The position numbers and the translations under genes are program-made. Below the pieces are notes generated by a model, which worked only from the letters and a program-made list of their open reading frames with translations, made no database searches and was not told the origin of the DNA. DNA of 64,000 nucleotides from an uncultured virus (IMG/VR IMGVR_UViG_3300020036_003824) (taxonomy: Duplodnaviria > Heunggongvirae > Uroviricota > Caudoviricetes): the IMG/VR virus record IMGVR_UViG_3300020036_003824. The stretch is one strand, 5' to 3'. Shown piece by piece: positions 673 through 63,347 of the stretch. The stretch's first letter is position 1; every line of letters starts with the position of its first letter.

Positions 673-890
673 AAGCCTTGTTTAATAAATTTTCCGTTTT
701 CGTCAAAAAATACGTCCGAATGAAAAGGCGTGTAACCATCAAAGTCGCTATTTTCTTCGTCCGGTTCTGCCCACATGGTAATAACTATTTCTGCATTTGG
801 ATAGCGGCGAATATCATCCTGGATTTCTTTTGGCTTCAATTCTATGCCAAAAGATTTATAAAGGTCGATAAATTTTTGTAGGTCTGTCAT
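663..890 (-). CDS. Hypothetical protein
   Basis: 75-aa ORF conserved with few substitutions at 62628-62855. Confidence 0.75.
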   Translation of the reverse strand: MTDLQKFIDLYKSFGIELKPKEIQDDIRRYPNAEIVITMWAEPDEENSDFDGYTPFHSDVFFDENGKFIKQGFWE

Positions 891-1372: not shown

Positions 1373-1383
1373 AAAAAACGAAA

Positions 1384-1460
1384 GAGCCGGAAACGCAAAG
1401 CATGGATAAGATGCTAAGCAAAACCGGCTCAATTTATCTTTAACCACCTTATCCGTGGCT
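1384..1460 (-). ncRNA. Putative cis-regulatory leader RNA: two hairpins with complementary 7-nt loops
   Basis: Loops GGATAAG (1404-1410) and CTTATCC (1448-1454); same structure with different sequence at 63348-63424. Confidence 0.7.
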
Positions 1461-1483
1461 TGTCGTTTGACTTTCAAAAGATA

Positions 1484-2836: not shown

Positions 2837-3053
2837 GTTTTTACGATTGATTCACAGTTGCACCCCTGCTCTGTATCGTTCGTAAAATCAATTTAAGCAA
2901 AAAGAAAGATCACATCTCGCTTTCCCATCCGATAGACTGCACCAACCATTTCCAAGGCACATCTTGAATGTATGTCTTGGTATTTTTGGTCAATCAAATA
3001 TCACAAAGTTATTAGGATGTTTGTTCCTGACGCGAAGGTGTATTCGTTGGCTT

Positions 3054-3791: not shown

Positions 3792-3994
3792 TCAAATTCA
3801 ACATCCGTATCTCTTAATCGGTTCACCAATCCCTGCAAGCGCTGGCGTCCGTTTTGGTGCAGCCAATTGGCGCGGTCGAGGGCTTCGTATTTCCCGGCGC
3901 GCGGGGAAAGTTTTGTTTTGTCAAGCACTTCCTGAATAGTATCGATAGCCTTTTGACGCAGGCGCTCTGCTCTTTCGTCGTTTAAATCGTCCAT
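3788..3994 (-). CDS. Hypothetical protein
   Basis: 68-aa ORF, ATGA-coupled to the downstream gene. Confidence 0.6.
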   Translation of the reverse strand: MDDLNDERAERLRQKAIDTIQEVLDKTKLSPRAGKYEALDRANWLHQNGRQRLQGLVNRLRDTDVEFE

Positions 3995-4039
3995 AATTTA
4001 TGTAAATTAAATGAATTTATAAAAAAAATACGCCCTCCA

Positions 4040-4573
4040 TCATTTCAAAATGGCCAAAATTAGAAGCAAGGCTAAATAAAACATAAGCCATAACCGGAAG
4101 TAAGTGCCGGCCAAAATAAGAAACGATTCAAAAATTATGTTTGGCTCTCTTTGATTGACATATGCGATATCGTTAATGATGTTTTTTGGGACGGAATCTT
4201 CAATCTGTAACTCGATCATTGATCTCTTTAATCCTCCGTTTTGCCATTGGTACCTATTGAATGAATCTGTAATATCTTTCCCAATTCGGGATAGATTTTC
4301 TTTTACTTGCCATTCTTCCGGTGTATAGGCGCCTGCTATTTGAGAATTTCCATATTTTGCCTCATACTCAATCAGCATACCCCTTCTTTTAAAATAATCA
4401 GTTTCAGCATTATATTTTAAAAGAAAATCCAATTCGTTTTCAGATTTCTCATCAGATGCTTTTAAAATGTACTTGTTTTCTGCATTTCCGGTCTTGTATT
4501 TTGGGTTTTTAGCCCGGATAGACCTTCTCCTACTTACCATTATTTCAATGTACTCTTGCTCTTGTTCTTGCAT
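4040..4573 (-). CDS. Hypothetical protein with C-terminal transmembrane segment
   Basis: AT-rich ORF with hydrophobic C-terminus. Confidence 0.65.
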   Translation of the reverse strand: MQEQEQEYIEIMVSRRRSIRAKNPKYKTGNAENKYILKASDEKSENELDFLLKYNAETDYFKRRGMLIEYEAKYGNSQIAGAYTPEEWQVKENLSRIGKDITDSFNRYQWQNGGLKRSMIELQIEDSVPKNIINDIAYVNQREPNIIFESFLILAGTYFRLWLMFYLALLLILAILK

Positions 4574-4660
4574 TTCATGTAGTTTAAAGATTTAAAAAAA
4601 GGCGATTCACTTTCCAGCAAGCCGCCTTTATTAAACACAATGCAAAACTATTAAAAGTCT

Positions 4661-5047
4661 TTATTCGGGATTGGGCGTTGCTGCCTCAATCAGCGTGTCA
4701 ACGGTCTGGTTTACTTGGCGCGTCCACGCCTGAAGGTCGATAGCCTGGTTGAACATGCTTTCGATGATTTCCTGATTTTCGCCGCCGATGATCTCTGCCA
4801 GCGCTTCTTTCACATCCGCAGCCGTCTGTTCATCCATGTCAGGCAGCGCCTGCGTGTAAAGTCCTGCCAGTTTGATGACGCCGGTTGCGACGTTTTTCGC
4901 TTCGTCGTCCGTCAATCCTTCAATTTGCAGCGAAGTCTTGTACAGTTCGCCGTATTTCACGAAAGCGCCTTCCAGCGGGCCTTCCAGTTCCGGGCGGGTG
5001 AATTTGATCTGCTTAATGAGTAGTTCGGCAATTGCTTCGTTGAGCAT
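4661..5047 (-). CDS. Hypothetical acidic helical protein
   Basis: 128-aa ORF with upstream TATATTTG -7 box (~5088-5095) and downstream terminator-like hairpin. Confidence 0.7.
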   Translation of the reverse strand: MLNEAIAELLIKQIKFTRPELEGPLEGAFVKYGELYKTSLQIEGLTDDEAKNVATGVIKLAGLYTQALPDMDEQTAADVKEALAEIIGGENQEIIESMFNQAIDLQAWTRQVNQTVDTLIEAATPNPE

Positions 5048-5134
5048 GGGTAAATCTGTTTTGGTGTGTAAAATTGTGATTTGAACACAAATATACGAAG
5101 ATTGGCGCTTTTATTTTGAGCGGTTTAACTCCCG

Positions 5135-6100
5135 TTAGTTTGACTGCCCGCTTTGAACTTCCGGTATTGACGCTTCCAGTCCCCATTTTGTAACTACCAG
5201 GTAGCCGCCGGGGACAGGCTGCAATACAATCGGATCATCCATGTAAAAGTCGAACATGGCCGGTGCCATGCTGAGCGAACTTTTGAAGCGCAGCCGGTAA
5301 TCATCCTTTGTTTCCACCGATGATTTATATGCTTCAAACATTGTTCCCGGTGCTACTATGCACCGGCTTACACTTTTATTCAGGTCAATCCTTTTAAGTG
5401 GCAGCAGGTCATCTTCAGTGAGCCGCATTTGAACGCTTGTAATCAGGCGCATGTTGATCTGCTCAAAAGACACGTACAGGCGCGAACCGTAGTTGTGTGG
5501 GTAAATCTTCATGCAAAAAACCATCCACTCGCTGCCATCCCGATCTACCATGGCGTATAAATCCATGTAGAATCCTTCGCTATCTTTTCCAGGTACCAAA
5601 ACGAAACCTTCGCCTATCGGGATAACACTGTCCGCTTTGAACATGCCGCCAAAACGTGCCGATATTTCAAATACCAACGGGCCGTTTCCGTACGGCGCGT
5701 GTACGTTCATAGATGCTCTTTGGAATAGTTTTTCGTGAAGAAAGCGCCAAACATCCAAACCGTGAACAAGCCCGTCCGTATTTTTCAGTTTAAAAGCGTC
5801 GATTTCGCGTTGATTCTTTGCCGGTATGTTGCCGGTAAAGAGGATTGACGGTCCTACAACCAGGTTGTATTTCTTGCAGATTTGCTCTACCTGCTTTTCT
5901 GTTACAAAATTGTTTTGCGGGTATTTGAGGCGCCAATATTCCACGTTCCTTTTGAATGCGGAAACGCCCATGCCCATAGGGATAAATTCTGTCTGACTGG
6001 CAAGTGTGTCCGGCCCGTCATCGGCATCACCAATCATTTCAAGTATCTCTACCTCAAATGATTGGTGGATTCTGGCAATTACTTCCTGCTCTGCTGTCAT
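5135..6100 (-). CDS. Hypothetical phage protein
   Basis: 321-aa ORF with C-terminal DPIVLQPVPGGYLVVTKWG segment. Confidence 0.75.
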   Translation of the reverse strand: MTAEQEVIARIHQSFEVEILEMIGDADDGPDTLASQTEFIPMGMGVSAFKRNVEYWRLKYPQNNFVTEKQVEQICKKYNLVVGPSILFTGNIPAKNQREIDAFKLKNTDGLVHGLDVWRFLHEKLFQRASMNVHAPYGNGPLVFEISARFGGMFKADSVIPIGEGFVLVPGKDSEGFYMDLYAMVDRDGSEWMVFCMKIYPHNYGSRLYVSFEQINMRLITSVQMRLTEDDLLPLKRIDLNKSVSRCIVAPGTMFEAYKSSVETKDDYRLRFKSSLSMAPAMFDFYMDDPIVLQPVPGGYLVVTKWGLEASIPEVQSGQSN

Positions 6101-6414
6101 TGCTTTTTCGGTTTGAGCGCCCGCGCCTGTTCCAGAATATCCGTCAGGGTGCGTTTATCTTCGATAATGGCAGCCAACTGCCGGCGACGTTGCAAAAGTT
6201 GCTCTATAAGCGTAATTTCATCCTGCACGACCTGTTGATCCTGCCATTTCTGTTTCAGGGCAGTAGAAATGATTGCAGTGTCCAGCGGGACGGGCCTGTT
6301 TCTGCCTTGTGTGATCCGGTAGGCTCCGAGGCTGTCGCGGGTGACAATGTTTTGAGCAGCGCAGGCGGCAGAAATGGCGATGGTGAAAATCAGAATCAAT
6401 TTAAGTTTAATCAT
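6097..6414 (-). CDS. Signal-peptide-bearing coiled-coil protein
   Basis: MIKLKLILIFTIAISAACAA|Q. Confidence 0.65.
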   Translation of the reverse strand: MIKLKLILIFTIAISAACAAQNIVTRDSLGAYRITQGRNRPVPLDTAIISTALKQKWQDQQVVQDEITLIEQLLQRRRQLAAIIEDKRTLTDILEQARALKPKKQ

Positions 6415-6436
6415 GTGTTGTTGGTGTTGGTGAAAA

Positions 6437-7045
6437 TTATTTAGTGTTTCTGAATGAGTGCTTCAAATCAAAGCCGTGCGCAGAAATTTTTTCTTTATCT
6501 GTTTGATTGTTGACTACTGCGGGTTGGCTTATGAAAAAATCGTTTATCTGCATCCATGCGACTTCCGGCTCTATGGCTTTTGCAAATGAAAAGTCAGCAA
6601 GGCGCGGGTTTTTTACTATCGGGTAAATCCGCCCATCCGGACTGTTGTCTACCAACATCACGGGGCAGTTGTGCTCAATGTTCAACGTCGTGCTTTTCCC
6701 GTGTAGTTCAGGCTCGCAGTGCCGGTAGTCTACTTCATCGCTCCAGTGTATAGTGCTTTTTGAGAGATCGGTCAGCACGTCTTTGTAATCGCTGATAAAA
6801 TACACCTTGTCTTTCCAGAATGTGTAAGCATAGATAGTTCCGCAAAATGCAATCAGTTGAAAAGCAAATCGCCTGCGTGTATCAGGCTGCGAAAAAGAGG
6901 GCTTGTAAAGACCTGATTTTATCCAGCCGCCTTTTAGGCTGAAGTCTTGCATTTGGCATACGCGTTCATACGTTACAAGCGGGTCAATGCTAAATTTTGC
7001 AACTTGGTGATCGTAATAGTCTTTGAAATTAGATATGATCTTCAT
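6437..7045 (-). CDS. Hypothetical phage protein
   Basis: 202-aa ORF, IISNFKDYYD...AHGFDLKHSFR. Confidence 0.75.
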   Translation of the reverse strand: MKIISNFKDYYDHQVAKFSIDPLVTYERVCQMQDFSLKGGWIKSGLYKPSFSQPDTRRRFAFQLIAFCGTIYAYTFWKDKVYFISDYKDVLTDLSKSTIHWSDEVDYRHCEPELHGKSTTLNIEHNCPVMLVDNSPDGRIYPIVKNPRLADFSFAKAIEPEVAWMQINDFFISQPAVVNNQTDKEKISAHGFDLKHSFRNTK

Positions 7046-7048
7046 GGC

Positions 7049-7348
7049 TTAAAAAATACGGGTAATGATTCTTTCCCAGATGTATCGGATTGTTTCAAGC
7101 ATCCTTTCCCAATATGTGTCTGTTGTCCACCCGTTGACCGAATCAACCGTCCATGCAAAGAAGTGCAGGGCAAATAGCAGGATAAAAGTAATGATGGTCA
7201 GCGTCAACCACATAGGCGAACCGCTTTCATCTTCCGTTTCGTATTCATGCCCGCAGTGGCGGCATACCAAAGCGGTATCTTCTTCTTTATGGCAGGCCGG
7301 GCAGGTGTCGGGTTCGGATGGGGGTTGAATCAGGAAAATAGGAAACAT
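7049..7348 (-). CDS. Zinc-ribbon membrane protein
   Basis: CPAC...CRHC followed by a transmembrane helix. Confidence 0.7.
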   Translation of the reverse strand: MFPIFLIQPPSEPDTCPACHKEEDTALVCRHCGHEYETEDESGSPMWLTLTIITFILLFALHFFAWTVDSVNGWTTDTYWERMLETIRYIWERIITRIF

Positions 7349-7360
7349 AGGTCGTTTTAT

Positions 7361-7780
7361 TTAGCGTTTTCTTCCTTTGGTGTACTGGTTGTTGTGAGGC
7401 GAATAGAGCCTTGTGTGATCTGATTTTGACAGACATTCAAGATTTGAAATCACATTGTTCGACTTATTGTTATCAATGTGATGAATATCAAAGTTTTCGG
7501 GAATTTTACCGACTTCTTTTTCCCAAACATATCTGTGCATTAGGGTTCTATCGTCGGTGGTAAGGGCGTAATATCCGGTATCCCGGAGTGTGAATTTCTT
7601 GTCATCATAAATTTGATACGATCTAAAATTTGGCCCTCGAAGTTGAAATTTTCTTTTTTTAAATGCCTTAAAAACACATTGCCTTGTTACTCCAATTGAA
7701 GCGGCAATTTGAGCAAGTGACATTCCAGATAAGTAATCTGAATACGCAAGATCATATTCTGTATTTCGGCTTCTTCCCAT
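7361..7780 (-). CDS. HTH plus HNH endonuclease
   Basis: N-terminal MSLAQIAASIGVTRQ HTH; MHRYVW...IHHIDNNKSNNVISNLECL HNH. Confidence 0.9.
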   Translation of the reverse strand: MGRSRNTEYDLAYSDYLSGMSLAQIAASIGVTRQCVFKAFKKRKFQLRGPNFRSYQIYDDKKFTLRDTGYYALTTDDRTLMHRYVWEKEVGKIPENFDIHHIDNNKSNNVISNLECLSKSDHTRLYSPHNNQYTKGRKR

Positions 7781-7797
7781 GTGGCAAAAATAGAAAA

Positions 7798-7977
7798 TTA
7801 GGCTGGCATTAGCAAACCTTTCGGTTTTCCATAATGGTATTTTTCTGCTATTTCGGTAGCCTGTGCTGAAATATTTTTAGTCGCCTGATCTGCCCGTTGT
7901 TCGAGCGCCTTCAAAGTAAGATACTTAAAAAAGTCTTCCTCTGATGCCAGAAGGCAAATTCTGATAATTTCTTTCAT
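7798..7977 (-). CDS. Hypothetical protein
   Basis: ORF, likely start MKEII. Confidence 0.45.
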   Translation of the reverse strand: MKEIIRICLLASEEDFFKYLTLKALEQRADQATKNISAQATEIAEKYHYGKPKGLLMPA

Positions 7978-8134
7978 GCTATCATTGAAGTTTAAAGTGC
8001 TTTGAAAAAAACCATGCACACCCGGCCCAAACAATTGAAATACTTTGCCAATGGGCGCATTTCTTTCGCTTTTCGGAATCGGCGTTTATTCTCACCTCGC
8101 AGACTTATCCGCCCGGGTGCGCATGGGGTTTGGG

Positions 8135-8749
8135 TTATCTACGTTTTCTGGCCCATGGGCGTTCAAATCCTATTTCTGCCAGCCTGCGAAGGCGGGCCTT
8201 TATCACTTTCACTTCCGGCTGCTTTTCATCCGATGCGCAGGCGCATATCGCCTCATCAAACTTCACCTCACTGCTGTATCTTTCCAGTACATCGTAAACG
8301 TCGCCGTGTCCTGCAATGTGGATATATGCGTTGTCGTCTACATTTTGCAGGTAGCACACGCACACGTCGTTTTGTGGCCGTCCCAGGTAATCGTATGACC
8401 AGGTGCGGTCGTTTCTAAAATGCTGCGTGTAGGTGCGGAAATGCCAGGTGCCGTCGGGAAACTTCGCAGCGTAGTAATAATGCTGCACACGGTTAGTGGC
8501 AAAGTGCCGGTTTTCAGTATCGCTTGCAAAATCGTTCACCGTCCAAACCGGCTGCCAGCGCGGTAAATCGCAGTCGAATACAGATTCGACTTTCGCCGGG
8601 ATGAGGTGGCCGGAATTTTTCAGGTATTCAAATTCTGCCAGCGAGCATTCGCGGCGAAAGGCGCCATGGTTGGCGAAAAAGGCAAACCCGTTTTGGTAGC
8701 GGAGAAGTACGGCAAGTACGCCGGAATGAGTGAGAAATACGTTTTGCAT
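8135..8749 (-). CDS. Hypothetical early protein
   Basis: ORF downstream of the operator-promoter at 8809; start moved to MQNVF. Confidence 0.65.
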   Translation of the reverse strand: MQNVFLTHSGVLAVLLRYQNGFAFFANHGAFRRECSLAEFEYLKNSGHLIPAKVESVFDCDLPRWQPVWTVNDFASDTENRHFATNRVQHYYYAAKFPDGTWHFRTYTQHFRNDRTWSYDYLGRPQNDVCVCYLQNVDDNAYIHIAGHGDVYDVLERYSSEVKFDEAICACASDEKQPEVKVIKARLRRLAEIGFERPWARKRR

Positions 8750-8808
8750 TGTAGTAAAATTGAACTTTTGCCTACTCTTTAGATTTTCGGCATCCTCTGC
8801 TTTTAATT

Positions 8809-8845
8809 GCGTTACAAACGCAACGCTTGTCATTCAGACCGCAAA
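8809..8845 (-). promoter_or_regulatory. Bacteroidota-type promoter with overlapping palindromic operator (degenerate)
   Basis: GCGTTACAAACGCAACGC; TTTG -33 box 19 nt upstream of the -7 box. Confidence 0.6.
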
Positions 8846-8912
8846 ATATTTTTTGCTCTTTTTCAAAAAAAAACCGGGCGCGCACATTTGCAGGCCCGGC
8901 AGGTCACGGCTT

Positions 8913-9323
8913 TCAAAATGACCTTCCCATTGTAATTTCATGCAGCGACGGCCATTTTTCAGGCTTTTGAAATTCGCCGTCCTTAATCAGTCCGGCCAGA
9001 TACAGCAGTATGTCTCCATGGCAAATGCTTTCGGTTGAGCACCAACAACACACGTCACGGCCTGCGAGGGGCAAAAGCCAGCGTGTAAACGCGCCGATGT
9101 CCTCATCTGCCATATCCATGCAGTATTCGTAAAAAAGCGCTACTGCCAGGATGTTGTTTTCAACGTATACCGACTTTCTGTTTTCACGTTCGTACCTCGT
9201 TTCAGACCAATACCACTCCCCGATTTTTGCAGGGTTGCCCCAACTGCTTGGCCTGCCGACATAAATGCAGCCTTCGGGTATTCCGGGAACGGCCCGGCGC
9301 GTTCTTTGCATCCGCTTTGGCAT
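8913..9323 (-). CDS. DUF4326-family protein
   Basis: YVGRPSSWGNP...LAGRDVCCWC...CHGDIL motifs. Confidence 0.85.
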   Translation of the reverse strand: MPKRMQRTRRAVPGIPEGCIYVGRPSSWGNPAKIGEWYWSETRYERENRKSVYVENNILAVALFYEYCMDMADEDIGAFTRWLLPLAGRDVCCWCSTESICHGDILLYLAGLIKDGEFQKPEKWPSLHEITMGRSF

Positions 9324-9329
9324 ATCGCT

Positions 9330-9572
9330 TCAATTTTGCACTGTGAATCTGAAAATTAAATACGCTACACCGGCGCTCACAAGTGCGGCCAGATAGACCT
9401 GAACGGCTACTTGCATGATGCGGACAAGCAAGACGGTCATGTGCGTCGCGTATGGTTGGTATGGCCGGCCTCTCAATTTGTTGAGCAGAATTGCGAGGTA
9501 GTAGGTCAGTATGATAACCGCCAAAACGGGCGTACTAATCAGTTTTAGGAGGAAAGTAAAGATTCGTTTCAT
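9330..9572 (-). CDS. Small membrane protein
   Basis: Two hydrophobic helices. Confidence 0.6.
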   Translation of the reverse strand: MKRIFTFLLKLISTPVLAVIILTYYLAILLNKLRGRPYQPYATHMTVLLVRIMQVAVQVYLAALVSAGVAYLIFRFTVQN

Positions 9573-10384
9573 GCTGTTTTTCGACTTACAAATGGAGGGA
9601 ATTGGCGGATCATCATGTCCGGCGGAATTGGGCGCACCTTGTCGATCTGCTTGAAAAAGTACGGTACGCCAGCATCGGCGCAGGATTTAGCCATTGAGGC
9701 CGCCCATGCCAGTTGGAAGGGGCGTTTACCGTGGCCGCTTTCGCCGCCCTGTATGATCCATGCAAAGCCATCCAGGTCTTCCGGCGTGGCCTGTATCGGG
9801 CCGATCTGCGGTTCGATGGATAAAAACAGGCGACCTTTTACTTTTTTCAAGTGAGGGACAAGCGTATCGAATGTGCTTTGATTGGAAACGGATGTTCCGA
9901 ACATCACATTCGGCGGCGGGTTTTCAAGCCAACTGTCCGGGATAAATTTATTTATGTTGCTGGGCCGCTTTGTCAAAAGCAGGAAATCCAGATCAGGGCA
10001 GGCCGGGATTATTTCGTTGAAAAAGCGGTCACGCAGCGCGCCTGTCCAAATGCTCATTTCATTTCCCTTGTGATCGATCATCGGCATGGACTTTTCAAAT
10101 ATATCCATCATACTGCCGACAAAAACGCGGTGCTTTTCACCGGCTGCCGCTGCATGTGCCTGCCAGGTGAGGAAGTTTGACCAAACAGATTTAACGGCCT
10201 TTCTGGATTTATCTATACCCCATACGTCATTTCCCCAGCGATGCGACAATGATTCCGCATAGCAGTTGTCGCATCCTTCATGGACTTTCGTACAGCCGAT
10301 CCACAGGTTGCCCGTGTGGCCGCTTGCCAGTGTTCCGTCGGCACGGACGGATCCTGTCCATTCAATTTTTGTGTCTTGTCCCAT
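9569..10384 (-). CDS. DUF5131 / phage Gp37Gp68 family protein
   Basis: TKIEWT, GCTKVHEGCDNCYAE, LLLTKRP, FLSIEP, WIIQGGESG, PYFFKQ. Confidence 0.92.
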   Translation of the reverse strand: MGQDTKIEWTGSVRADGTLASGHTGNLWIGCTKVHEGCDNCYAESLSHRWGNDVWGIDKSRKAVKSVWSNFLTWQAHAAAAGEKHRVFVGSMMDIFEKSMPMIDHKGNEMSIWTGALRDRFFNEIIPACPDLDFLLLTKRPSNINKFIPDSWLENPPPNVMFGTSVSNQSTFDTLVPHLKKVKGRLFLSIEPQIGPIQATPEDLDGFAWIIQGGESGHGKRPFQLAWAASMAKSCADAGVPYFFKQIDKVRPIPPDMMIRQFPPFVSRKTA

Positions 10385-10459
10385 TTTTAGGATATTTTAC
10401 AGAAAACGGCCTGAACCATAAAAGCGCAGGCCGTTTTTTAATTTTCAGGATTTTACTGT

Positions 10460-10785
10460 TTAGTCTTTCTTTTCTTCATCGGAAAAGATATGATCCATAA
10501 ACTGACGCACGTTGTACCGCTTCAATGCTTCGATCATCACGTCTTCGATGGATGGTGTATCTCGCATCCATCCTTCAAATACTTTTGCCAGGTCTTGCCC
10601 CGACATTTTGATCTCTATGCAGGCGCCTTCGCCGCGAACAACCGCACGCATCCATCCTTTCGGTTGTCCGTACTCTTCAATCTCTTCAGGTGAAAAAATA
10701 GGCTTTTCAAAGCCCGACACGTCTTTCAGTTCTTCATACTGACTGTTTTCGGTTTCAGGGGGGGGCTTACTTTCTTGGTAGGCAT
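10460..10785 (-). CDS. Hypothetical protein interrupted by a C8 homopolymer frameshift
   Basis: ATG at 10785 is out of frame with 10460-10720 by one base at the G8 run 10758-10765. Confidence 0.55.
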
Positions 10786-10812
10786 AAGTTTTAGTTTAAA
10801 AATGTGAATTAA

Positions 10813-10849
10813 GAGTTACAAATTTAACGGCTATCAGATCAAAGGCAAA
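10813..10849 (-). promoter_or_regulatory. Promoter with overlapping operator (degenerate)
   Basis: GAGTTACAAATTTAACGG; TAAATTTG -7 box and TTTG -33 box at 19-nt spacing. Confidence 0.65.
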
Positions 10850-10855
10850 ATAATT

Positions 10856-11176
10856 TCATACTTTTTTTCTGGCCGTATCCGTTTGTGCTATGCTGACTGA
10901 TCCGCTATTCGGCCCTGTCGTGTAAGACTGGATGCCGGGGTAAACAATCCTGTCCGCTTTGATTAGTCCCGCTTGCAGGCATTGATTGAAAACGCCGTCT
11001 GATAAATCGGGCGTCAATCCGTAGTGTTCACGCGCCTTTCGCTTGAAAGTGTATTCGATGAACAGTTCGCCCTCGTGAAGCATAAGGCTTGGTCTGACCT
11101 GCGGCCCTTCTTTTTTCACCGGAGCCTTTTTCGCTTTTGCCATTGTATCACAGTTTGTAGACAAGCATGGAAGCAT
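10856..11176 (-). CDS. Hypothetical protein
   Basis: ORF, likely start MAKAKK. Confidence 0.6.
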   Translation of the reverse strand: MLPCLSTNCDTMAKAKKAPVKKEGPQVRPSLMLHEGELFIEYTFKRKAREHYGLTPDLSDGVFNQCLQAGLIKADRIVYPGIQSYTTGPNSGSVSIAQTDTARKKV

Positions 11177-11606
11177 CCCGCTTTTCAGGGTTTGTGCGGC
11201 CTTTCCATCCTGTCATTTTTTTGAATCTGTCGGCATCCTTTTTCCAGTTGTTCGGAGACATCGGCTTTGTTACCCGGTAGGGTATTTCCATGTATTCCAG
11301 AACCTCGATTATATCCATGCCGCGTTGATGGCTGCGGCCTGTGTTTTCGCCAGCCTCTGCTGCGTATGCCAGCGGGTTACGGACTTTTACACTTTTGGGC
11401 ACATAGTTCAGGTGCCGGTTTCCTTTATTCAGCCAACCAGCCTCTACTACCACAAGCGCGATCTGATCCCGCAGTTCGTGCAGCCGGCGCATCATATCTA
11501 CCAGGTTGAGCGCTTCGATAGATTCAAATTTCTGCTGCGGTTTATTCCAGACAGAAAATCCGTTTTCGTCAACGTCGGGGTCGATGCCTATGTATAAATG
11601 TTTCAT
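11148..11606 (-). CDS. RuvC-like Holliday junction resolvase
   Basis: YIGIDPD, VVVE and C-terminal RDA acidic catalytic pattern; adjacent to helicase. Confidence 0.75.
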   Translation of the reverse strand: MKHLYIGIDPDVDENGFSVWNKPQQKFESIEALNLVDMMRRLHELRDQIALVVVEAGWLNKGNRHLNYVPKSVKVRNPLAYAAEAGENTGRSHQRGMDIIEVLEYMEIPYRVTKPMSPNNWKKDADRFKKMTGWKGRTNPEKRDASMLVYKL

Positions 11607-11622
11607 CACTTTGTTTTTACGG

Positions 11623-12981
11623 TTAAAATTCAGGTTCACTCCTATTTCCCTGGTTCACAAAATCAGGAAAGTCGTTTGGAAGTTCCGGCACATCGTAAAA
11701 ACCTAAAATGTGGTTAAATCTGCACTCCGAAGCATCCCGGCCCGTTTCCCGGCCTTTGGCAATGAAATTATCCGCATAGCCTTTTTCGTATGGCGTACCG
11801 TCTTCGCGGCTCATTACCTGCACATATTCGGGCCGGTATGGCAGGATGATTGTCGTCGCGTCCTGCGTAAAGTTTTTCGCGTCGGCTATGTCGTACATCC
11901 CGGCGCGTTTATCAGGCCTGTTCATTACTTCCTGCTTTACCTGTGCAAGTACCATGATCGGAATATTCAGTTCCAGTGAAAGCGCCCGAAAACCTGCGGA
12001 TATGCGGGCAAGTATTTCATGTCGAGCACCACGTATAGATGGAATGTCCATCAATTGCGCATAATCCACTACTGCCAGTTGTATGCCCCGTTCATACCTT
12101 TCTTCCCGAATACACCCGGCAACATCCGAAAAAGAGTTTCCGGGGTTTATCGACCTGATTGGCAGTGATTTAATCATCTCCCAATCGGCCCGTATTTTTT
12201 CCAGTTCATCGGGCCTGTAATGCGAAAAGTCGCGTCTGAAAGCCTGCCCCGAATACATTTGCCATAGGCGCTTTTGAACGTTCTTTGGCGAATTTTCAAG
12301 GTTGATGTACGTCGATGGTATTCCACTGAGTGCGCAATAAAGGATCTGGTTCAGCGCGTGGTACGACTTTCCGCCGCCGGAAAGCATCGCAAGTATGATG
12401 TAGTCGGACGGCTCGTAATACGGAATTTTGTTGCGCATCGACTTTAAAAACGGCTTCACCGGATAGTCGAAGGAAAGACCTTCGATAGCCGCAAAAAGTT
12501 CAGATTCAAATTCAGGCTTTCCATCCGACGCTTTTACAAAAGCGCTTATACCCCTTTCACGCCGCATTGATTCTGCCCGGTTCAGCATTTCCATGGCAGA
12601 ATGCCCATCCAAAAGCCAGTTGACCTGGTGCAGCATGATCTGCGTTTCAGAATAGCGACCGTACGCATCGTAAAAGTACGTGTATGCGGTAACTACATCC
12701 ATTTCGGCGTGCTCCATGGCGTAGCCGTGAAAAACACCGATCTCACCGGGGCTTAGACTTGTGGCGATGGTAGCCGCGCTGTATGCCCCGTTCCGTTCAA
12801 ACTGCGATGCGCATTCCAGGATGATGTCATGCCACTGCTTATTTGCCGGGTCGAGCATTTCGGGCCGAATCCTATCCTGAATACGGTGGAAGTTGAACGG
12901 TTCGCCAAGCATTCGTTTGGCAAGTAATTCGACCGCCGTTGTGTACTGCTGAAAAAGCGTTTGCGTTGCGTCTGGATTCAT
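11623..12981 (-). CDS. DnaB-like replicative helicase
   Basis: Walker A SGGGKS, INLEN, VVDYAQL, LAQV, QDAT, IAKGRETG motifs. Confidence 0.9.
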   Translation of the reverse strand: MNPDATQTLFQQYTTAVELLAKRMLGEPFNFHRIQDRIRPEMLDPANKQWHDIILECASQFERNGAYSAATIATSLSPGEIGVFHGYAMEHAEMDVVTAYTYFYDAYGRYSETQIMLHQVNWLLDGHSAMEMLNRAESMRRERGISAFVKASDGKPEFESELFAAIEGLSFDYPVKPFLKSMRNKIPYYEPSDYIILAMLSGGGKSYHALNQILYCALSGIPSTYINLENSPKNVQKRLWQMYSGQAFRRDFSHYRPDELEKIRADWEMIKSLPIRSINPGNSFSDVAGCIREERYERGIQLAVVDYAQLMDIPSIRGARHEILARISAGFRALSLELNIPIMVLAQVKQEVMNRPDKRAGMYDIADAKNFTQDATTIILPYRPEYVQVMSREDGTPYEKGYADNFIAKGRETGRDASECRFNHILGFYDVPELPNDFPDFVNQGNRSEPEF

Positions 12982-15633: not shown

Positions 15634-16431
15634 TCAGTGCATGTTTGCGTTAATCCACTTTTTTACGTCTGGTAGTACGCGCATAAAATTGGCGCGCCAA
15701 AAAATGTTCTTTTCAAATTGAGCATCAGCGCTAACTTCCGCCCATTTAATGCGCTGTTCATCGCTGAAAATAGCCGCTTGCAAGCGTTGGTCGATCAGCG
15801 CAACGGTGTTTTCCCAGCGCTCTTTTGTGGGTGTTTCCTGCGCCAAGTCCCATGCTTCTTTCCAGCCTGTTTCCATTTGCCGGGTCGTTACTATTTCGCG
15901 GATGAAGGTCAGGAAGTCGCTTTTATATTTCAGCAGTTGACCGACAAATTCCCGGCGTACTTTGGTCTGATACGCTTCCGTATTTCCGGTGTACTGCGAT
16001 TTTCCGAAGTCTTCAAAGTCGCTTATAAGATCAGGCAGGCCGATGTGTTTATCGAAAGTTTTTACGGCAACCTGTATTTCGTCAAGCGGCCAATTCTGAT
16101 CCTCGTTCATTTGTTCGAGTGACTTGAAAATCTTGTTGAATAGTGCCAGTTCATTGCCGGGCGTGTCCTGCTGAATTATGAAGTTCATGTAGACATAATT
16201 CACATTGTTCACCACAACTACCGGCAACTTTCCGGCAATTTCGAGTGCGGCGTAGTTGATCTGCGCCTGTATACGAATCCATTCGCGATTCTCGATAAGC
16301 CCCATGTTGTACTGCTTTCTTCCCTGGTTCCATCGGGCTTGAAGCAGGATCGTATCCGGGTAAAACTTTGCGAGATGGGATAAAGCCTCTTCCGTTTGGC
16401 CGGTCGCAATTAGATGCTTAATGTTAGTCAT
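15634..16431 (-). CDS. Protein with N-terminal effector-associated domain (EAD11-like) and helical C-terminus
   Basis: IKHLIATGQTEEAL...ILLQARWNQGRKQYNMGLI...WIRIQAQINYAALEI pattern. Confidence 0.7.
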   Translation of the reverse strand: MTNIKHLIATGQTEEALSHLAKFYPDTILLQARWNQGRKQYNMGLIENREWIRIQAQINYAALEIAGKLPVVVVNNVNYVYMNFIIQQDTPGNELALFNKIFKSLEQMNEDQNWPLDEIQVAVKTFDKHIGLPDLISDFEDFGKSQYTGNTEAYQTKVRREFVGQLLKYKSDFLTFIREIVTTRQMETGWKEAWDLAQETPTKERWENTVALIDQRLQAAIFSDEQRIKWAEVSADAQFEKNIFWRANFMRVLPDVKKWINANMH

Positions 16432-17995: not shown

Positions 17996-19702
17996 ATGAA
18001 GCAAGGTAAAAAAGTGCAGTTTTTTTATGAGTTGCACCGCAACCCGCCCGGTTTGGTAGGTCGGTTCCCCGATGGAACTACCTACCGCAGTCTTTTGGAT
18101 GGACGTACATATTGGCTGCTCAATGGCCAGTATGAAGTGCCGGTTCCGGGCTGCCCGTTTCCGGGGCAACTCTTCGCGGCGAACGTTTTCGCATTTCTTT
18201 TCAAAAACAGGCGTATGGTAATCAACTCCATGTTTTTTATCGCCGCCCTGGTCGTTATGCAGTTCTTTATCTGGCAGTTGCCGGGCGATGCGCTAGATGA
18301 AGCGAAGTTGAGTTTCATTTCGCTGATCTCGTTCGCCCTCAACGGCGTACTGCTGCTTGCGGGGTGCATACTGACGTTAACGCTGCTAATCTGGAATTTC
18401 GGCAAGGGCGTTACTTTTCCTTCGAAAGAGGATGAAGCGGTTTTGTCTCTCACAGACGGACAAATAAGCATATCGCCTGACGTGCTTGTAATGTCCGGTT
18501 CTGAAAATGAAAATCCGTCTGACATGGCGGACAGGATCGAACTTGCGCGGGCTGTGCAGAAAAACGGACAGTGGATCGTTATCCTTACTTTTCGCCACAA
18601 AGACGGACTGATTATTTTTACGTCGGACAATTCGGATGACGTGGAATTTGACGGCTACCGCTTCCAGCGCACCGACTGGGGCGAAGCACACCAAGCCGCA
18701 AACTGCAAGCATTACCCCTCTGAAACGTGGGCGCAATACACGGCTTATTGCCGGAAGTTTGCAGCCGATTTTTCGGAGTGGAGCGCGGAGGAAAAGCCGC
18801 GCCATATCGACCCGGTAACAGCGCTCACTCAGCGCCTCCGGGCTGCTGCTGTAAAGATGATCGTTCTACTGCTGATCTGCGTTTCGGGTGCGCTGTCTGC
18901 CCAAAAAAGCGCACAGGTATCGAACTACTTGGGGCAGTACAGGTACGACAACGTAAAGCCCGCCGGTGAAGTGAAATTCATCTTCGAAAAGGTGATTTTG
19001 AAACGCGGCGGCAAGGGAGATAAGACCTACAAGCAACTCCTGCGTGATGGCATTTCCTATACCGACGCGGATAATGCTGGCAGGCTTGTCGGCATTACCG
19101 TATCCGGTCAGGTGATCGAAGCGGAATCTGCCGGCGCGGTGGTTATGCCCAAAAAGCAAGGCCGCATGGTTTCCAGTATTGCAACCAGTGAAACACGGCC
19201 TATACCGGATGCGCTTTCAATTCCTGACAGCGTGGCCATGGAGCAAAAGTTAGAAGGCGTGAAAACGCAGGTGGATAAATGGAGGTCGGAAGTATGGAAA
19301 TCTATCCGTCCGGTGTGGGCCTTTGTGATGTGGTTTTTTACATCGATACTTGCACCAGTGCTCGTTTTGCTGGGCGGTTGGATGCGCTACATCGCAAAGA
19401 GCGCTGCGGGCGAGGGCGCCGTCAATTCATGGGGCGGTTCCATCTTCGGGCCTTTCATGGTATGGGTACATCAAAATTTCAGCGCGTCCCTTATGGTCAT
19501 CGTGTGGACGGCTGCGACAATCCTGCTTTTCGATTCATTCCTTTGGCTTGTATGGTGGGGTTTCAGTCTATGGTCTATAATCCCGGTTTGGCTTTTGGAA
19601 CTGTGGATTGCACAGGCGCTTACCAACTGGATTGTGCCGAATGTACGCGTTATCTCAAATGGGAATCAGGCGGCAAACCGATTTCCCCAAATTGGCGGGT
19701 AA
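17996..19702 (+). CDS. Large multi-pass membrane protein
   Basis: Several TM clusters plus an internal signal-peptide-like segment MIVLLLICVSGALSA|Q at 18857. Confidence 0.75.
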   Translation: MKQGKKVQFFYELHRNPPGLVGRFPDGTTYRSLLDGRTYWLLNGQYEVPVPGCPFPGQLFAANVFAFLFKNRRMVINSMFFIAALVVMQFFIWQLPGDALDEAKLSFISLISFALNGVLLLAGCILTLTLLIWNFGKGVTFPSKEDEAVLSLTDGQISISPDVLVMSGSENENPSDMADRIELARAVQKNGQWIVILTFRHKDGLIIFTSDNSDDVEFDGYRFQRTDWGEAHQAANCKHYPSETWAQYTAYCRKFAADFSEWSAEEKPRHIDPVTALTQRLRAAAVKMIVLLLICVSGALSAQKSAQVSNYLGQYRYDNVKPAGEVKFIFEKVILKRGGKGDKTYKQLLRDGISYTDADNAGRLVGITVSGQVIEAESAGAVVMPKKQGRMVSSIATSETRPIPDALSIPDSVAMEQKLEGVKTQVDKWRSEVWKSIRPVWAFVMWFFTSILAPVLVLLGGWMRYIAKSAAGEGAVNSWGGSIFGPFMVWVHQNFSASLMVIVWTAATILLFDSFLWLVWWGFSLWSIIPVWLLELWIAQALTNWIVPNVRVISNGNQAANRFPQIGG

Positions 19703-19735
19703 ACCTTTTTTTAAACAACACAAAATCCATACAAG

Positions 19736-19966
19736 ATGTACATACTTACCATTTACAATGACGGGAAAAGGTATTACTCCGCTCCGCTGCAAGAAATGCC
19801 GCCCACTACCGATGAAACAACTATCTCATCACCGGAGATTCAAACAAATGCCACTGTTTACGATGATGGTAACAGGATTGATTCCATCGTACAAAAGGTC
19901 ACGGAACAGGAGTTCGGCATGTATGTCAAAAGCCCCGGAACGTTCACAACAGAAAGAATATTTTAA
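19736..19966 (+). CDS. Hypothetical protein
   Basis: 76-aa ORF with A-rich leader. Confidence 0.55.
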   Translation: MYILTIYNDGKRYYSAPLQEMPPTTDETTISSPEIQTNATVYDDGNRIDSIVQKVTEQEFGMYVKSPGTFTTERIF

Positions 19967-19975
19967 ACCGAAAAA

Positions 19976-20443
19976 ATGAAACTACGCCTTAAATCCGTAT
20001 ACGTCATGTGGTCGCTCGACTTTCCATGGCGGGCGAAGATCGGCATTTCGCACGATCCAAAAATCAGGCGTAACAGCATACAGACAAGTATCCGGCAAGT
20101 GTTGCGGCGGGATGTGGATGTCAATATACTCATCCAAATCCCGCTGCTTCACGCCCGGATGATCGAAGGGGGGCTGCATAATGCCCTTCGGCGACTGGAA
20201 TGCAAAAGCATGACCGGAAGCGGGTACACAGAATGGTTTTGGTTTTTCAACCCCGTTACCTTCATCTTCGCCTGGCTGTTTTTTTACGCCTACGGTTTTG
20301 AAAATCATTCGGGATGGTGCGCGTTCTTTTTGCTTGCGCCTGTCCCGCTGGATTTCGTTATATTCGCATTGATCCTGGCGCTGGTTCAGTACGCTTTTGT
20401 GGGCGCTGTTCTGTACGGGATTGCATGGTTTTTCCTCACCTAA
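19976..20443 (+). CDS. GIY-YIG (T5orf172/MUG113-like) domain fused to C-terminal TM helices
   Basis: VYVM...KIGISHDPKIR...IEGGLH...GYTEWF followed by hydrophobic helices. Confidence 0.75.
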   Translation: MKLRLKSVYVMWSLDFPWRAKIGISHDPKIRRNSIQTSIRQVLRRDVDVNILIQIPLLHARMIEGGLHNALRRLECKSMTGSGYTEWFWFFNPVTFIFAWLFFYAYGFENHSGWCAFFLLAPVPLDFVIFALILALVQYAFVGAVLYGIAWFFLT

Positions 20444-20711
20444 ACTTTCAATAAAAAAAGCACATCGGAAACAAATTACGCGCCGCTCGAACGAAGGCAG
20501 GATTTACGCAGACAAAGGCTGCCGAATTGATAGGAATCAACCGCGCAACGGTGGTAAATATTGAAAACTGGCGCCAACGGCTGGCTTGACGACGTAGCCG
20601 CCGTTTAGCCTTGCGGGTTGGGTTCGGCGGCTATGTGCGGCAAGCCTTTGTTATCAGATTTTTATTTATCTCTTTGATTTTCAAAGATTTGCGTTTCGCC
20701 TCAAAAACAAT

Positions 20712-20776
20712 TTGATTATTTGTCAAAAATAATTGCCAAAAAACTTGACAAATAGTCAATCTTGCCTTATCTTTGT
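20712..20776 (+). promoter_or_regulatory. Cassette-internal promoter with paired TTGAY-N5-GTCAA operators
   Basis: TTGATTATTTGTCAA (20712-20726), TTGACAAATAGTCAA (20745-20759), TATCTTTG -7 box at 20768. Confidence 0.65.
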
Positions 20777-20829
20777 ATCATCAAACAGCAAGGCAATAAC
20801 GCAAGGCTGAAAATTTAAAATCTGGAACG

Positions 20830-21063
20830 ATGGAATTGTCATCAAACTTGAAAGGAAAATCTCAAAATGAGATAATTGAAATGGCGCAAAATATTGCTGC
20901 TGAAACTTTCATAAAAAACGGCAACAAGGCTGTTTCATTCACTGACAACAATGAACTTCGGTGCCTTGTTGGTGGCCGGTATCAGTCTTACAAAGAGTTG
21001 TCTAAATTGGTTATTTCGATTTACAACGAAACACAATGCTCTTTAATATTGAACAATCTATGA
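20830..21063 (+). CDS. Cassette-borne hypothetical protein
   Basis: 77-aa AT-rich ORF after the promoter, ATGA-coupled to the HTH gene. Confidence 0.7.
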   Translation: MELSSNLKGKSQNEIIEMAQNIAAETFIKNGNKAVSFTDNNELRCLVGGRYQSYKELSKLVISIYNETQCSLILNNL

Positions 21064-21245
21064 CCAATACCGAACTGAAACATAAATTTGAAGTCACGGG
21101 CAAGTCGGCCCGTGACTTTATCAGGTGGGCGCATGAAAAAGGCGTGAAAGTTCACGATGCTACTATTTCGCGGCACCTCGCGGGAACGCAGGGAATTACA
21201 CAGGCTTGGGAACTTGCTTATTTGTGGTTTTTTTCTGGTTTCTGA
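21060..21245 (+). CDS. Cassette-borne small HTH-like protein
   Basis: SARDFIRWAHEKGVKVHDATISRHLAG; stop codon lies within TCTGATAAC of the second hairpin. Confidence 0.7.
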   Translation: MTNTELKHKFEVTGKSARDFIRWAHEKGVKVHDATISRHLAGTQGITQAWELAYLWFFSGF

Positions 21246-21422
21246 TAACTGATGCACTGCCGACGTAGCCGCGCTTAGTCGGTCTATGAAAGGCAGTGCA
21301 GGGTTATGCCAACACCTTTTAATTTTCAACAAAAAATTAACCATCGTAAACCTGCTTTCGTTTTCGCTGCTCTACGATATAGAGCCAAAAAAATTGCTTC
21401 CAAAACTGAAAGACTTTAAAAA

Positions 21423-22358
21423 ATGAAATCACTATCTGACCTGCTTCAAATCCTGCTTTCCCTTCCCGGATGGGTTGGATACGTGGCCTGTTTCATAATG
21501 GTAGCGTTTTTTTTACAGGCCGTCCGGATCCTGCGTTTCGCATGGTCCGGGCTGGCCTTTTTGCTTTCCTTCCTCCGAAATGTAGCCGTGAAGCCTTCGC
21601 CCGGCTGGATTCTATGGGTGGCCTTATTGGCGATCCCGCTGTGGGCATTTCGGCAAAGCACATCGGACGGCCTGCAATGGGTTGAGCAGCGGTATCTGAA
21701 CCCGCTTTTTTTTACGCCGGATACTTCCAATCACATGCTGGCGATTTATGAAATGGAAATGGCGCTGTACTGCGATCCTTATGAATGCGAGATCATCCGC
21801 ACTCGAACACGGCAGATTGCTGAAAAGGTAGGAAGTACGCCGCTGGGCATTTATGAGGTCGCTTTTTCTGAATGCGGCATGAATCCTTTTATCGTTCGAA
21901 CGGATGGTGTTGCCGCCGGCTGGATACAGTTCACACGCGCCGGACTGATCGGCACGGGCTTCACGCTGGAACAGGTCAAAGAAGCCTGCCGACAGCGCAA
22001 TACGGCGCTCATCATGGATTTGACAGAGGCTTACCTGGTGAATAAAAGCAAGGGCAAGCCGATGCCCAGATCGTGCGACGTTTACACCTGCGTATTTGCC
22101 CCCGGATACCTTGGCTTTGGTGACGACCAAACGCTTTACGGCATATCGGACGGCGCTGCGTACTACCTGAATGCCGGATTAGATGGCTACTATTTGCAGC
22201 AGGTAGGCGATCAGCAGATCATCATGCACTCCCGAAAGGCTGCCGATGGGCGCATCACGATCAACGATCTGGCGCTGGCGCTGGCAGCCAAAAAAGCGGC
22301 ACTGGCAAAGAAGTACAAAAAAGGCCCGACACTCGAAAGCATCGGGCCTGAATTTTAA
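21423..22358 (+). CDS. Membrane-anchored lysozyme-like / lytic transglycosylase
   Basis: N-terminal TM helices; FSECGMNP catalytic Glu, AAGWIQF, DVYTCVFAPGY, NAGLD. Confidence 0.7.
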   Translation: MKSLSDLLQILLSLPGWVGYVACFIMVAFFLQAVRILRFAWSGLAFLLSFLRNVAVKPSPGWILWVALLAIPLWAFRQSTSDGLQWVEQRYLNPLFFTPDTSNHMLAIYEMEMALYCDPYECEIIRTRTRQIAEKVGSTPLGIYEVAFSECGMNPFIVRTDGVAAGWIQFTRAGLIGTGFTLEQVKEACRQRNTALIMDLTEAYLVNKSKGKPMPRSCDVYTCVFAPGYLGFGDDQTLYGISDGAAYYLNAGLDGYYLQQVGDQQIIMHSRKAADGRITINDLALALAAKKAALAKKYKKGPTLESIGPEF

Positions 22359-22361
22359 ATT

Positions 22362-22460
22362 ATGCACGCCCGTCTCGAATCATAGTTCGAACCAGTGTTT
22401 ATCCTCACTTCATGGATTCTGCGACAGTTGCTTGTCCGTTCTTTCCATACGGGCGCGCAT
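22362..22460 (-). ncRNA. Putative four-way-junction structured RNA
   Basis: 12-bp closing stem with one G.U pair on the - strand plus three internal hairpins. Confidence 0.4.
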
Positions 22461-22462
22461 GA

Positions 22463-22909
22463 CTACGGCTGCGTCATCCCCCCGGCCATTTCCAGCCTCT
22501 TTTCCTGTTTCAGATTCGATACATGCTGCTGCATGGATTGCAGTACATCCTTTGCGCTTTCATACAGGAAATGAGCGGCCTTGTATTCCGCGTCTGCCTG
22601 CTGTTCTTTTTGCAGTTCCATTTCCACGAATACAAGCGCCGCTGCCCCGGCTGCCGTTCCGCTCTCACCTGTTTTTATGAGCCGGTTCTTTTCCTTTTCG
22701 AATGTCGATCGCCGAACAAATTCGGTTCGGTTCTTTTCCTTGTAGTACGATCCAACTTCACCGGCGTACATAAAAATCAGCGTTGCCAGGCGGCGTACAC
22801 CTTTTTGCAGGCGCTCGATGTCATTGAAGTCTTCTTTGACTTTGTAGTAAAAATCAACAATATCGACAATCTGATCCAGTACGCTTTTTTCGTTCTCTTT
22901 GTGTTCCAT
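22463..22909 (-). CDS. Hypothetical coiled-coil protein
   Basis: 148-aa helical ORF. Confidence 0.7.
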   Translation of the reverse strand: MEHKENEKSVLDQIVDIVDFYYKVKEDFNDIERLQKGVRRLATLIFMYAGEVGSYYKEKNRTEFVRRSTFEKEKNRLIKTGESGTAAGAAALVFVEMELQKEQQADAEYKAAHFLYESAKDVLQSMQQHVSNLKQEKRLEMAGGMTQP

Positions 22910-29766: not shown

Positions 29767-30093
29767 TTAGTCATTATAAAGCAAATCAACCAAAAGTTCA
29801 GGCTCTCGTTTTACTAGCTCACGATAGCATTTTTGGCAAAAATCGTCTCTGAAACATGCATCTCCAAAATGGTGCATAGACTTTCCATGTAGATTAAATT
29901 CAATCCGTGGAGGCACTCCATGTTCTTTCATGTAGTTGTCTTGTGAAAGCCTGAAATTAGTCGGCGTCCTATGTTGATATTTTCTGGAATGCCCACAAAA
30001 ACACTTTTCCCAATTTGGTGTATCTACACTTCCAATATGTATTTTTCCACCCCCTTGGCTTTGATCGTTTCCATGTATAAAATACTTTTCCAT
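29767..30093 (-). CDS. Cys/His-rich hypothetical protein
   Basis: IH...CFCGH...CQKC. Confidence 0.65.
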   Translation of the reverse strand: MEKYFIHGNDQSQGGGKIHIGSVDTPNWEKCFCGHSRKYQHRTPTNFRLSQDNYMKEHGVPPRIEFNLHGKSMHHFGDACFRDDFCQKCYRELVKREPELLVDLLYND

Positions 30094-30596: not shown

Positions 30597-30668
30597 TGGC
30601 GAGAGCCGGAATCGAACCGGCGGCTCTGGGTTATGAGCCCAGCGAATTAGCCCCTTTTCCATCTCGCG
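30597..30668 (-). tRNA. tRNA-Met(CAT), initiator (fMet)-type
   Basis: CTGGG-CTCATAA-CCCAG anticodon arm with three G:C pairs; GCCGG-TTCGATT-CCGGC T arm; C1 mismatch; A11:U24; no encoded CCA. Confidence 0.85.
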
Positions 30669-63337: not shown

Positions 63338-63347
63338 AAAAAAGAAA

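Follow-up and report, generated by a model that had tools for sequence, protein, structure and literature searches.

The integron is seen as a bacterial device dependent on its own integrase. Integrase-less clusters of attC sites (CALINs) have already been published from phages (Qi et al. 2023, PMC9892861); 17 such clusters were found in that screen of 10,705 phage genomes, one of them in a virulent Polaribacter phage, and IntI1 recombined five of the six phage attC sites tested. The IntegronFinder 2.0 report (PMC9024848) gives a single complete integron in the Bacteroidetes. The present analysis concerns a 64-kb stretch of DNA from an uncultured virus of the Caudoviricetes, a wastewater phage (IMG/VR record IMGVR_UViG_3300020036_003824), referred to in its whole length as the window and numbered on its + strand, in which a gene for a regulator of the XRE type is interrupted by a segment of about 752–756 bp carrying two hairpin sites; a complete twin record, G001, stood in for the phage genome. 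We consider it probable, with some reservation, that this segment is mobile DNA of an integron-like phage cassette system that was inserted in the XRE gene.

The original prediction, made from the sequence of the window, described a 752-bp segment flanked by CAAC and containing two AAC...GTT hairpins, and all of these elements are present. The left CAAC lies at 20575-20578 (+) and the second, 752 bp from it, at 21327-21330 (+); on one side is the N-terminal fragment of the XRE/HTH_3 gene (20455..20577, +) and on the other its C-terminal fragment (21337..21426, +). A search with the right fragment returned, as the sole longer protein, P0001, an intact 74-residue homologue that is present on four contigs, carries PF01381 and is an XRE regulator according to one source. 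The left fragment corresponds to residues 4-44 of P0001, with which it is identical at 40 of 43 positions, and the right fragment to residues 46-74 and the stop, with identity at 29 of 31. Because the intact protein matches both halves in this way, the gene is proven to be truly split. P0001 reads ...NIENGRQQLTIVNLL... across the break, which lies between Q44/Q45 and L46. The target CAAC consists of the Q44 codon and the next base, and its AAC is now the 5′ box of hairpin 1; the left junction therefore reads CGCCAAC on the + strand and GTTGGCG on the − strand and is located at the conserved triplet of the hairpin sites, in agreement with the earlier proposal of a secondary GTTGGCG site.

The assignment to HTH_3 is borne out by the intact protein and also by the left fragment, which matches positions 1-31 of the 55 positions of the Pfam HTH_3 model (20455-20586, E 2.7e-7); no complete HTH_3 domain is present in one frame in the window, where the gene is split, startless and out of frame. 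It is dead in at least three ways. An in-frame TAA (20452..20454, +) stands at the codon equivalent to residue 3 of the MNI start of P0001, so that the start is lost, as expected for the decayed regulator that had been proposed. T20569 is a G-to-T substitution that gives Trp for Gly (the left half, read in its own frame, has ENWRQ in the window), and a 2,370-nt contig that also bears the insert (X14) has G at this position. The right fragment is one base out of frame relative to the left, owing to six consecutive A where the insert ends on the right (21331..21336, +). The original prediction had joined the halves by removal of one extra base. The split that it described is real, but the frame that it used was wrong: the frame of the left half is intact, T20569 is a substitution, and the frame error lies in the A-run at 21331-21336.

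Hairpin site 1 (20576..20652, +; 77 nt) extends from AAC at 20576-20578 to GTT at 20650-20652, and hairpin site 2 (21247..21305, +; 59 nt) from AAC at 21247-21249 to GTT at 21303-21305. In hairpins 1 and 2 alike, CGACGTAGCCGC begins 14 nt past the A of AAC, which confirms the common offset noted previously, and the exact 10-mer ACGTAGCCGC has two occurrences in 64 kb, each within one of the hairpins. When folded as single-stranded DNA (ssDNA), the + strand of site 1 has an energy of −25.7 kcal/mol (z −4.6, with none of 200 shuffles as good) and that of site 2 an energy of −17.8 kcal/mol (z −2.8, with one of 200 as good), whereas the − strands are weaker folders (−19.3 and −13.9 kcal/mol, respectively); both hairpins thus fold, each better on the + strand. 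Single unpaired bases are present in hairpin 1. The 3′ box of site 1, GTTATCAGA (20650..20658, +), is exactly complementary to the box at the 5′ end of site 2, TCTGATAAC (21241..21249, +), which contains the TGA stop of the second cargo open reading frame (ORF), and the complementarity originally claimed for the inner ends is therefore correct. One self-consistent unit is present in the window, composed of hairpin 1, the cargo at 20659-21240 and the box TCTGATAA. The second unit is stub-like, consisting of hairpin 2 and a 25-nt tail (21306..21330, +) whose last bases are the second CAAC; it is not a self-consistent cassette, because there is no complementarity between the tail and the 3′ box of that site. 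An alternative boundary, at a 6-bp repeat GCCAAC (20573-20578 and 21308-21313) that gives an in-frame join, was rejected since P0001 has no counterpart of this 25-nt tail.

The hairpins are not confined to the window. When the core common to hairpins 1 and 2 was used to scan viral contigs, 10 loci were returned, five of them homologous hairpins (one truncated) and five chance-like, and cores nearly identical to that of site 2 are present in G002, G003/G004 and G006. Ten aligned sites, of about 67 nt, have the consensus GCATAAC-TGN-stem-inner stem-loop-stem-NGG-GTTATGC with 18 pairs, nine of which show compensatory changes; when the alignment is extended to 29 sites, 10 of the 18 pairs are changed on both sides, 90.7% of cells are paired as compared with 74.6% in shuffles, and the covariation score is 0.431 as compared with 0.160 in shuffles, a value that none of 500 shuffles reaches and that is at most 0.131 in slid controls. 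AAC and GTT are paired in 28-29 of the 29 aligned sites. These comparisons show that the hairpin sites are a structured family, of which site 2 is a canonical member and site 1 a divergent member with a longer inner stem. The internal loops of the consensus are asymmetric (3 versus 2 nt and 2 versus 3 nt), and no conserved bulged G or T was established in it. The coding (+) strand folds as well as or better than its complement in 11 of 11 sites. A covariance model, R1, was built from the 10 sites, which include site 2 and not site 1; in the window it identifies these two sites only, with scores of 74.5 bits for site 2 (by construction) and 27.8 bits for site 1 (E 5e-5). Construction of such a model and its use elsewhere had been suggested with the original prediction, and R1 does find homologous sites in other viral records, where they are arranged in arrays.

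Sites are present in 14 viral records besides the twin, in same-strand arrays between small ORFs; examples are five sites in G002, five in G003/G004, six plus two in G008 and four in G019. In G006 three AAC...GTT hairpins follow a DnaB gene, with a small ORF behind each. A first box-gap-box scan of viral contigs gave 32 loci, two of which were the known G003 and G004; five of the other 30, which were searched with R1, have strong sites and two have weak ones. A second scan gave 17 loci, nine of them new, and four of these nine have sites when searched in the same way. Of 29 inter-site intervals, 26 have their longest ORF on the same strand as the site, and in 17 the stop of the longest ORF falls within the next 5′ box, as TAA. 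Similarity between arrays is confined to the sites and the cargo differs, so that, as had been anticipated, homologous hairpins flank variable cargo elsewhere.

The ends of the units are related to each other across this cargo. The 3′ flank of one site and the 5′ flank of the next are complementary, beyond GTT/AAC, over a mean of 4.74 nt in 23 neighbor pairs, and over at least 6 nt (6-7) in 14 of the 23, as compared with 2.15 nt between the two flanks of one site (n = 34) and 2.16 nt in a set of 1,002 pairs drawn from separate contigs. Non-consensus boxes, such as ACACACA, CTATGCA and ATCAGA, also covary across the cargo, as seen for GTTACACACA with TGTGTGTAAC, for GTTCTATGCA with TGCATAGAAC and, in the window, for GTTATCAGA with TCTGATAAC. 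Integron cassettes show complementarity of this kind, since it is closure of the cassette into a circle that completes the site, and the complementarity of the present boxes is as expected if the units pass through a circle.

Five breakpoints are well defined. All are at the 5′ AAC of the coding strand and none is at the equally conserved 3′ GTT box; the left junction in the XRE gene is one of them. In a contig from run X2 the window cargo is shared up to 21249, the C of AAC, and is followed by a different hairpin body, whereas a contig from run X13 has the left XRE fragment up to 20580 and then yet another hairpin body. The sole cargo common to two arrays is a 316-nt unit of G002 and G004, composed of a site and an ORF of 70 residues, in which the similarity starts at its own AAC and stops exactly at the next AAC, the hairpin bodies beyond being different. 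Three further junctions are non-canonical: the right junction of the window, a hybrid site in G006 and a junction in one X2 contig. This placement of the breakpoints gives a unit composed of hairpin, 3′ box, ORF and 5′ box, an order that is mirrored relative to that in classical integrons. The asymmetry in folding, with the coding strand at least as good a folder in 11 of 11 sites, is consistent with this polarity. The crossover at G|TT that was originally proposed is supported insofar as the breakpoints at AAC, read on the opposite strand, correspond to this classical position, but the genes are then antisense, and the right junction of the window is not clean. The XRE locus is a variable hotspot in the population, because contigs break or diverge at several points around it; 20 runs (X1-X20) from 12 studies of wastewater, activated sludge and freshwater hold much of the region 19500-22500 of the window.

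The sites thus described are like those of integrons and CALINs in being imperfect hairpins whose 5′ and 3′ feet are formed by invariant AAC and GTT, respectively, in having a conserved structure with variable stem sequence, in the presence of one site per small cassette in arrays of uniform direction, and in having cassette ends that are complementary across the cargo and exchange within the conserved triplet; with the phage CALINs they share their occurrence in virulent phages without an integrase. They differ in that the genes are on the better-folding strand and the site heads the unit, in contrast to the usual layout of ORF followed by attC, and also in that no consistent extrahelical bases were seen and IntI, attI and Pc are lacking. 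The literature searched, in which subscription journals were not covered, gave no account of the mirrored arrangement or of the present site family. The proposal of an integron-like cassette inserted in the XRE gene is sustained by the intact allele represented by P0001 and by the existence of the site family in arrays, but the right junction is not cleanly site-specific.

On its coding strand, the unit starts just after AAC with the hairpin site and continues with a 3′ box led by GTT, a short leader with one or a few small ORFs, and a 5′ box that ends in (T)AA, often the stop codon of the ORF. A mechanism can be suggested in which units would pass through a circle, in which the basal stem of the hairpin closes. 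The coding strand would fold as ssDNA and be cut within AA|C by a tyrosine recombinase, a geometry that would be that of the bottom strand of integron attC but with the genes on the folding strand, resulting in the mirrored layout. In the window, the partner in recombination of the hairpin would have been a secondary CAAC within the XRE gene, the enzyme being supplied in trans from the host or from a co-infecting phage, and the gene would then have decayed by loss of its start, the Gly to Trp change and a frame slip in the A-run.

The enzyme is not encoded in cis. Pfam searches of 85 window ORFs revealed no recombinase of any class, whereas they did identify DnaB, methylases, three HNH_3 endonucleases, a terminase and a tape-measure protein, and a six-frame search with PF00589 at E ≤ 0.1 gave no matches in the complete twin G001 and none in nine other array-bearing records; the earlier observation that the phage genome lacks an integrase is thus confirmed. 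Supply in trans is inferred because the phage has no enzyme of its own. G001 and G002, the two complete genomes, have no common protein at E < 1e-6, and no recombinase is common to the array-bearing phages. G002 has an integrase of the lysogeny type 13 kb from its array, and in G008 an integrase, with its 5′ part cut by the contig end, adjoins one array. The 170 relatives of the G008 integrase are ordinary Bacteroidota integrases with a SAM-like N-domain; among viral contigs the fragment matches only itself, with no homologue in the window or in other arrays, it has no match among solved structures, and its scores with the XerC and IntI families are weak and far under the cut-offs. The search for a linked tyrosine recombinase that the original prediction called for therefore gave none shared by the arrays. 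A complete integron, with IntI, attI and Pc beside an array, was not encountered among the array-bearing records.

The gene immediately upstream of the XRE locus (19976..20443, +; 155 residues) has a weak match to T5orf172, a GIY-YIG-like domain, that is below the cut-off (PF10544, E 0.016), and a homologue in G010 that is 36% identical to it matches T5orf172 at E 2.3e-5. Since site-specific single-strand nucleases of the GIY-YIG superfamily have reportedly been described (PMC11893778, 2025), the product of this gene is a possible candidate for a hairpin cutter.

Elements that exploit the Xer recombinases of the host provide a second comparison. In such elements, for example the CTX phage, a folded single strand is recombined by host XerC/D (mentioned in PMC3091885). 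The present sites would be similar in that a folded ssDNA hairpin would be the substrate of a host tyrosine recombinase and no enzyme of the element itself would be needed, but the target is not dif and the units are in arrays. As a lead, the box CCGCATAA may resemble the inner part of a dif half-site; a palindromic pattern from the site box was about as frequent in five Bacteroidota genomes as a reversed control, which is the level of chance.

Several observations weigh against the view that the segment is a cassette inserted by site-specific recombination. The right junction is non-canonical, since the tail after hairpin 2 lacks complementarity to the 3′ box, and the A-run exceeds the length needed to encode the QQ of P0001. 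The exact crossover base is not fixed, because DNA of the intact allele was not recovered; scans with P0001 gave only relatives of 36-38% identity in metagenome contigs and only short HTH matches in viral contigs. As regards the empty junction that was to be looked for according to the earlier proposal, among the assembled contigs of four runs none joins across the insert and one (X14) carries it, and the absence of an empty-site contig there proves nothing. One X2 contig joins the body of hairpin 1 (20578) to unrelated upstream sequence ending ...GTTATCATT, which has no AAC, and represents an artefact of assembly or else a non-canonical junction without explanation; it should be noted that each metagenomic breakpoint is represented by one assembled contig. 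Site A of G006 (L017 12275-12343, −) is a hybrid whose halves meet within the conserved CGACG core and not at AAC; its 5′ half has the same sequence as that of the third site in the array, its 3′ half is of the hairpin 2 type, and its stems are unpaired. The excess of G.T over A.C pairs (71 to 8 among 612 cells), which agrees with folding of the coding strand, comes from a model-fitted alignment in which one invariant G.T pair gives up to 34 of the 71, and coding-strand pairing that tolerates G.U fits a role as RNA equally as well as a role as ssDNA. Finally, no recombinase has been identified for the hairpin sites.

The last two points bear on the view that the hairpins are intercistronic RNA elements, acting in processing, stabilization or translation coupling, are conserved between small phage genes, and that genes are shuffled, with the present insertion as one instance, by homologous or microhomology recombination at these short common sequences. 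A precedent is provided by the promoter/stem-loop (PeSL) motifs of T4-type phages, for which shuffling is reportedly attributed (PMC2839356, PMC4122927) to homologous recombination between composite promoter-terminator repeats. As portrayed there, PeSL motifs are like the present sites in being conserved intergenic stem-loops that flank small variable genes in plastic genome regions and delimit the places where genes are gained and lost; AAC/GTT feet, boxes that are complementary across units and breakpoints at one triplet set the window family apart from them. A function as RNA is consistent with the better folding of the coding strand and its tolerance of G.U-type pairs, with the location of the sites exactly between a stop (for 17 of 29 intervals, the TAA of the box) and the leader of the following gene, and with the absence of a dedicated enzyme in cis, and the right junction of the window and the G006 hybrid resemble the products of microhomology or homologous events. 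However, homologous exchange leaves unexplained both the complementarity of the boxes of the same unit, non-consensus boxes included, and the location of five breakpoints at the 5′ AAC with none at the 3′ GTT box, and no T-run follows the hairpins. We regard the RNA interpretation as unlikely.

It is less probable still that these are ordinary integron attC sites, forming a CALIN captured from a bacterial integron and moved by host IntI. The AAC and GTT triplets, the hairpin length, the variable stems and the complementary ends all fit attC, and the 17 phage CALINs and the activity of IntI1 on five of six sites tested (PMC9892861) provide a precedent. There is also one bacterial locus with the classical arrangement. 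When R1 was applied to 121 genomes from the phylum of a Geofilum genome, the Bacteroidota, one of the 121 had a site (48.9 bits); at this locus, L135 (G060:C63), a strong site (9860-9926) and a weak site (10979-11023) flank a TIR-EAD11 gene that is on the strand opposite to the site model, which is the classical integron orientation, in an island (genes 899-11721) that also contains type I restriction-modification and Pycsar genes. However, that genome has Xer-like recombinases and nothing above the IntI cut-off, and none of the 35 loci returned by a pattern scan of one genome for each of 185,579 species is a convincing site. The phage arrays have their genes on the folding strand with the site first, the reverse of the usual layout, and IntegronFinder 2.0 gives only a single complete integron for the Bacteroidetes (PMC9024848). 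As a separate observation, the window encodes at 15637-16431 (−) an EAD11 protein (E 4e-12), a domain that is common to the site-flanked TIR protein of the bacterial island.

P12002L, the Polaribacter phage of the published CALIN screen, gave nothing significant with R1. Its genome (L116) has intergenic AAC...GTT hairpins on the coding strand at 29974-30077, 38016-38117, 38817-38949 and 39100-39252, which are located beside methyltransferase genes and have the same general design, in an AT-rich family that is not scored by R1. Searches with blastn of the region 19900-22000 of the window, and of a three-site array, against GenBank phages gave no match.

A non-autonomous element of the IS200/IS605 type, inserted 3′ of CAAC by an HUH transposase acting in trans, is a highly improbable identity for the insert: two subterminal hairpins on the same strand, insertion directly 3′ of CAAC with CAAC as the element end, and the lack of a classical inverted terminal repeat would be as expected for such elements and their non-autonomous derivatives, which have hairpins on one strand, insert 3′ of a short specific sequence and have no inverted terminal repeats, but the sites are in long arrays (up to six sites) with one hairpin per gene instead of being paired at element ends, the complementarity of boxes across the cargo is foreign to that family, and no Y1 transposase or HUH domain is present in the 85 window ORFs and 144 ORFs of other contigs (229).

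If the segment is, as we favor, a cassette of an integron-like system, the array-carrying phages in which this system resides probably infect Bacteroidota. A broader and more tentative proposal, which we consider doubtful in its entirety, is that it is a phage-borne integron of mirror polarity, common to Bacteroidota phages both virulent and temperate, that can dispense with an integrase because its sites mimic the substrate of a ubiquitous host tyrosine recombinase of the Xer type. Any phage with such sites could then capture, swap and even mis-insert cassettes during infection, and these cassettes could also move into bacterial defence islands. The insertion in the XRE gene is recent and is found in a phage that lacks a recombinase, the intact allele being still represented among public protein sequences, and wastewater and freshwater samples differ at this locus exactly at the feet of the hairpins. 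Together with the arrays of other phages, it offers a testable case of how phages gain small accessory genes, by which enzyme, and whether cassettes pass between phages and Bacteroidota chromosomes; the covariance model and the test for box complementarity can be reused for mapping the system.

The cargo of the window unit consists of two small genes. Upstream of them are an inverted repeat with 15-nt arms that are 93% complementary (20712..20759, +), which may serve as an operator, and, upstream of ORF1, the motif TATCTTTG (20768..20775, +), which we take to fit the Bacteroidota −7 promoter motif TAnnTTTG. ORF1 (20830..21063, +; 77 residues) has no firm family assignment from Pfam, PHROGs, NCBIfam or the Atlas. 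ORF2 (21060..21245, +; 61 residues), whose ATG overlaps the stop of ORF1 (ATGA), encodes a small phage protein with no match in Pfam or NCBIfam; its Atlas cluster is 93% viral with a very high score, and the closest named clusters, with somewhat lower though still high scores, are HTH_3/XRE, which as a lead suggests that it is possibly a helix-turn-helix regulator. The 311-residue protein encoded downstream has no relative in viral contigs.

Two similar gene pairs, each composed of an ORF with a UvrB/C motif and an HNH_3-AP2 endonuclease, are located near the two ends of the window (427-1477 and 62392-63421, −), and may be due to terminal redundancy or represent paralogous modules of homing endonucleases; the length of the window is 64 kb and that of the twin record 59,091 bp. 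Rfam searches of the window at gathering thresholds matched two RNAs and nothing else, a DUF805b RNA motif at 8769-8800 (−), with a score of 39.8 bits, and a tRNA at 30597-30668 (−), with a score of 56.2 bits.

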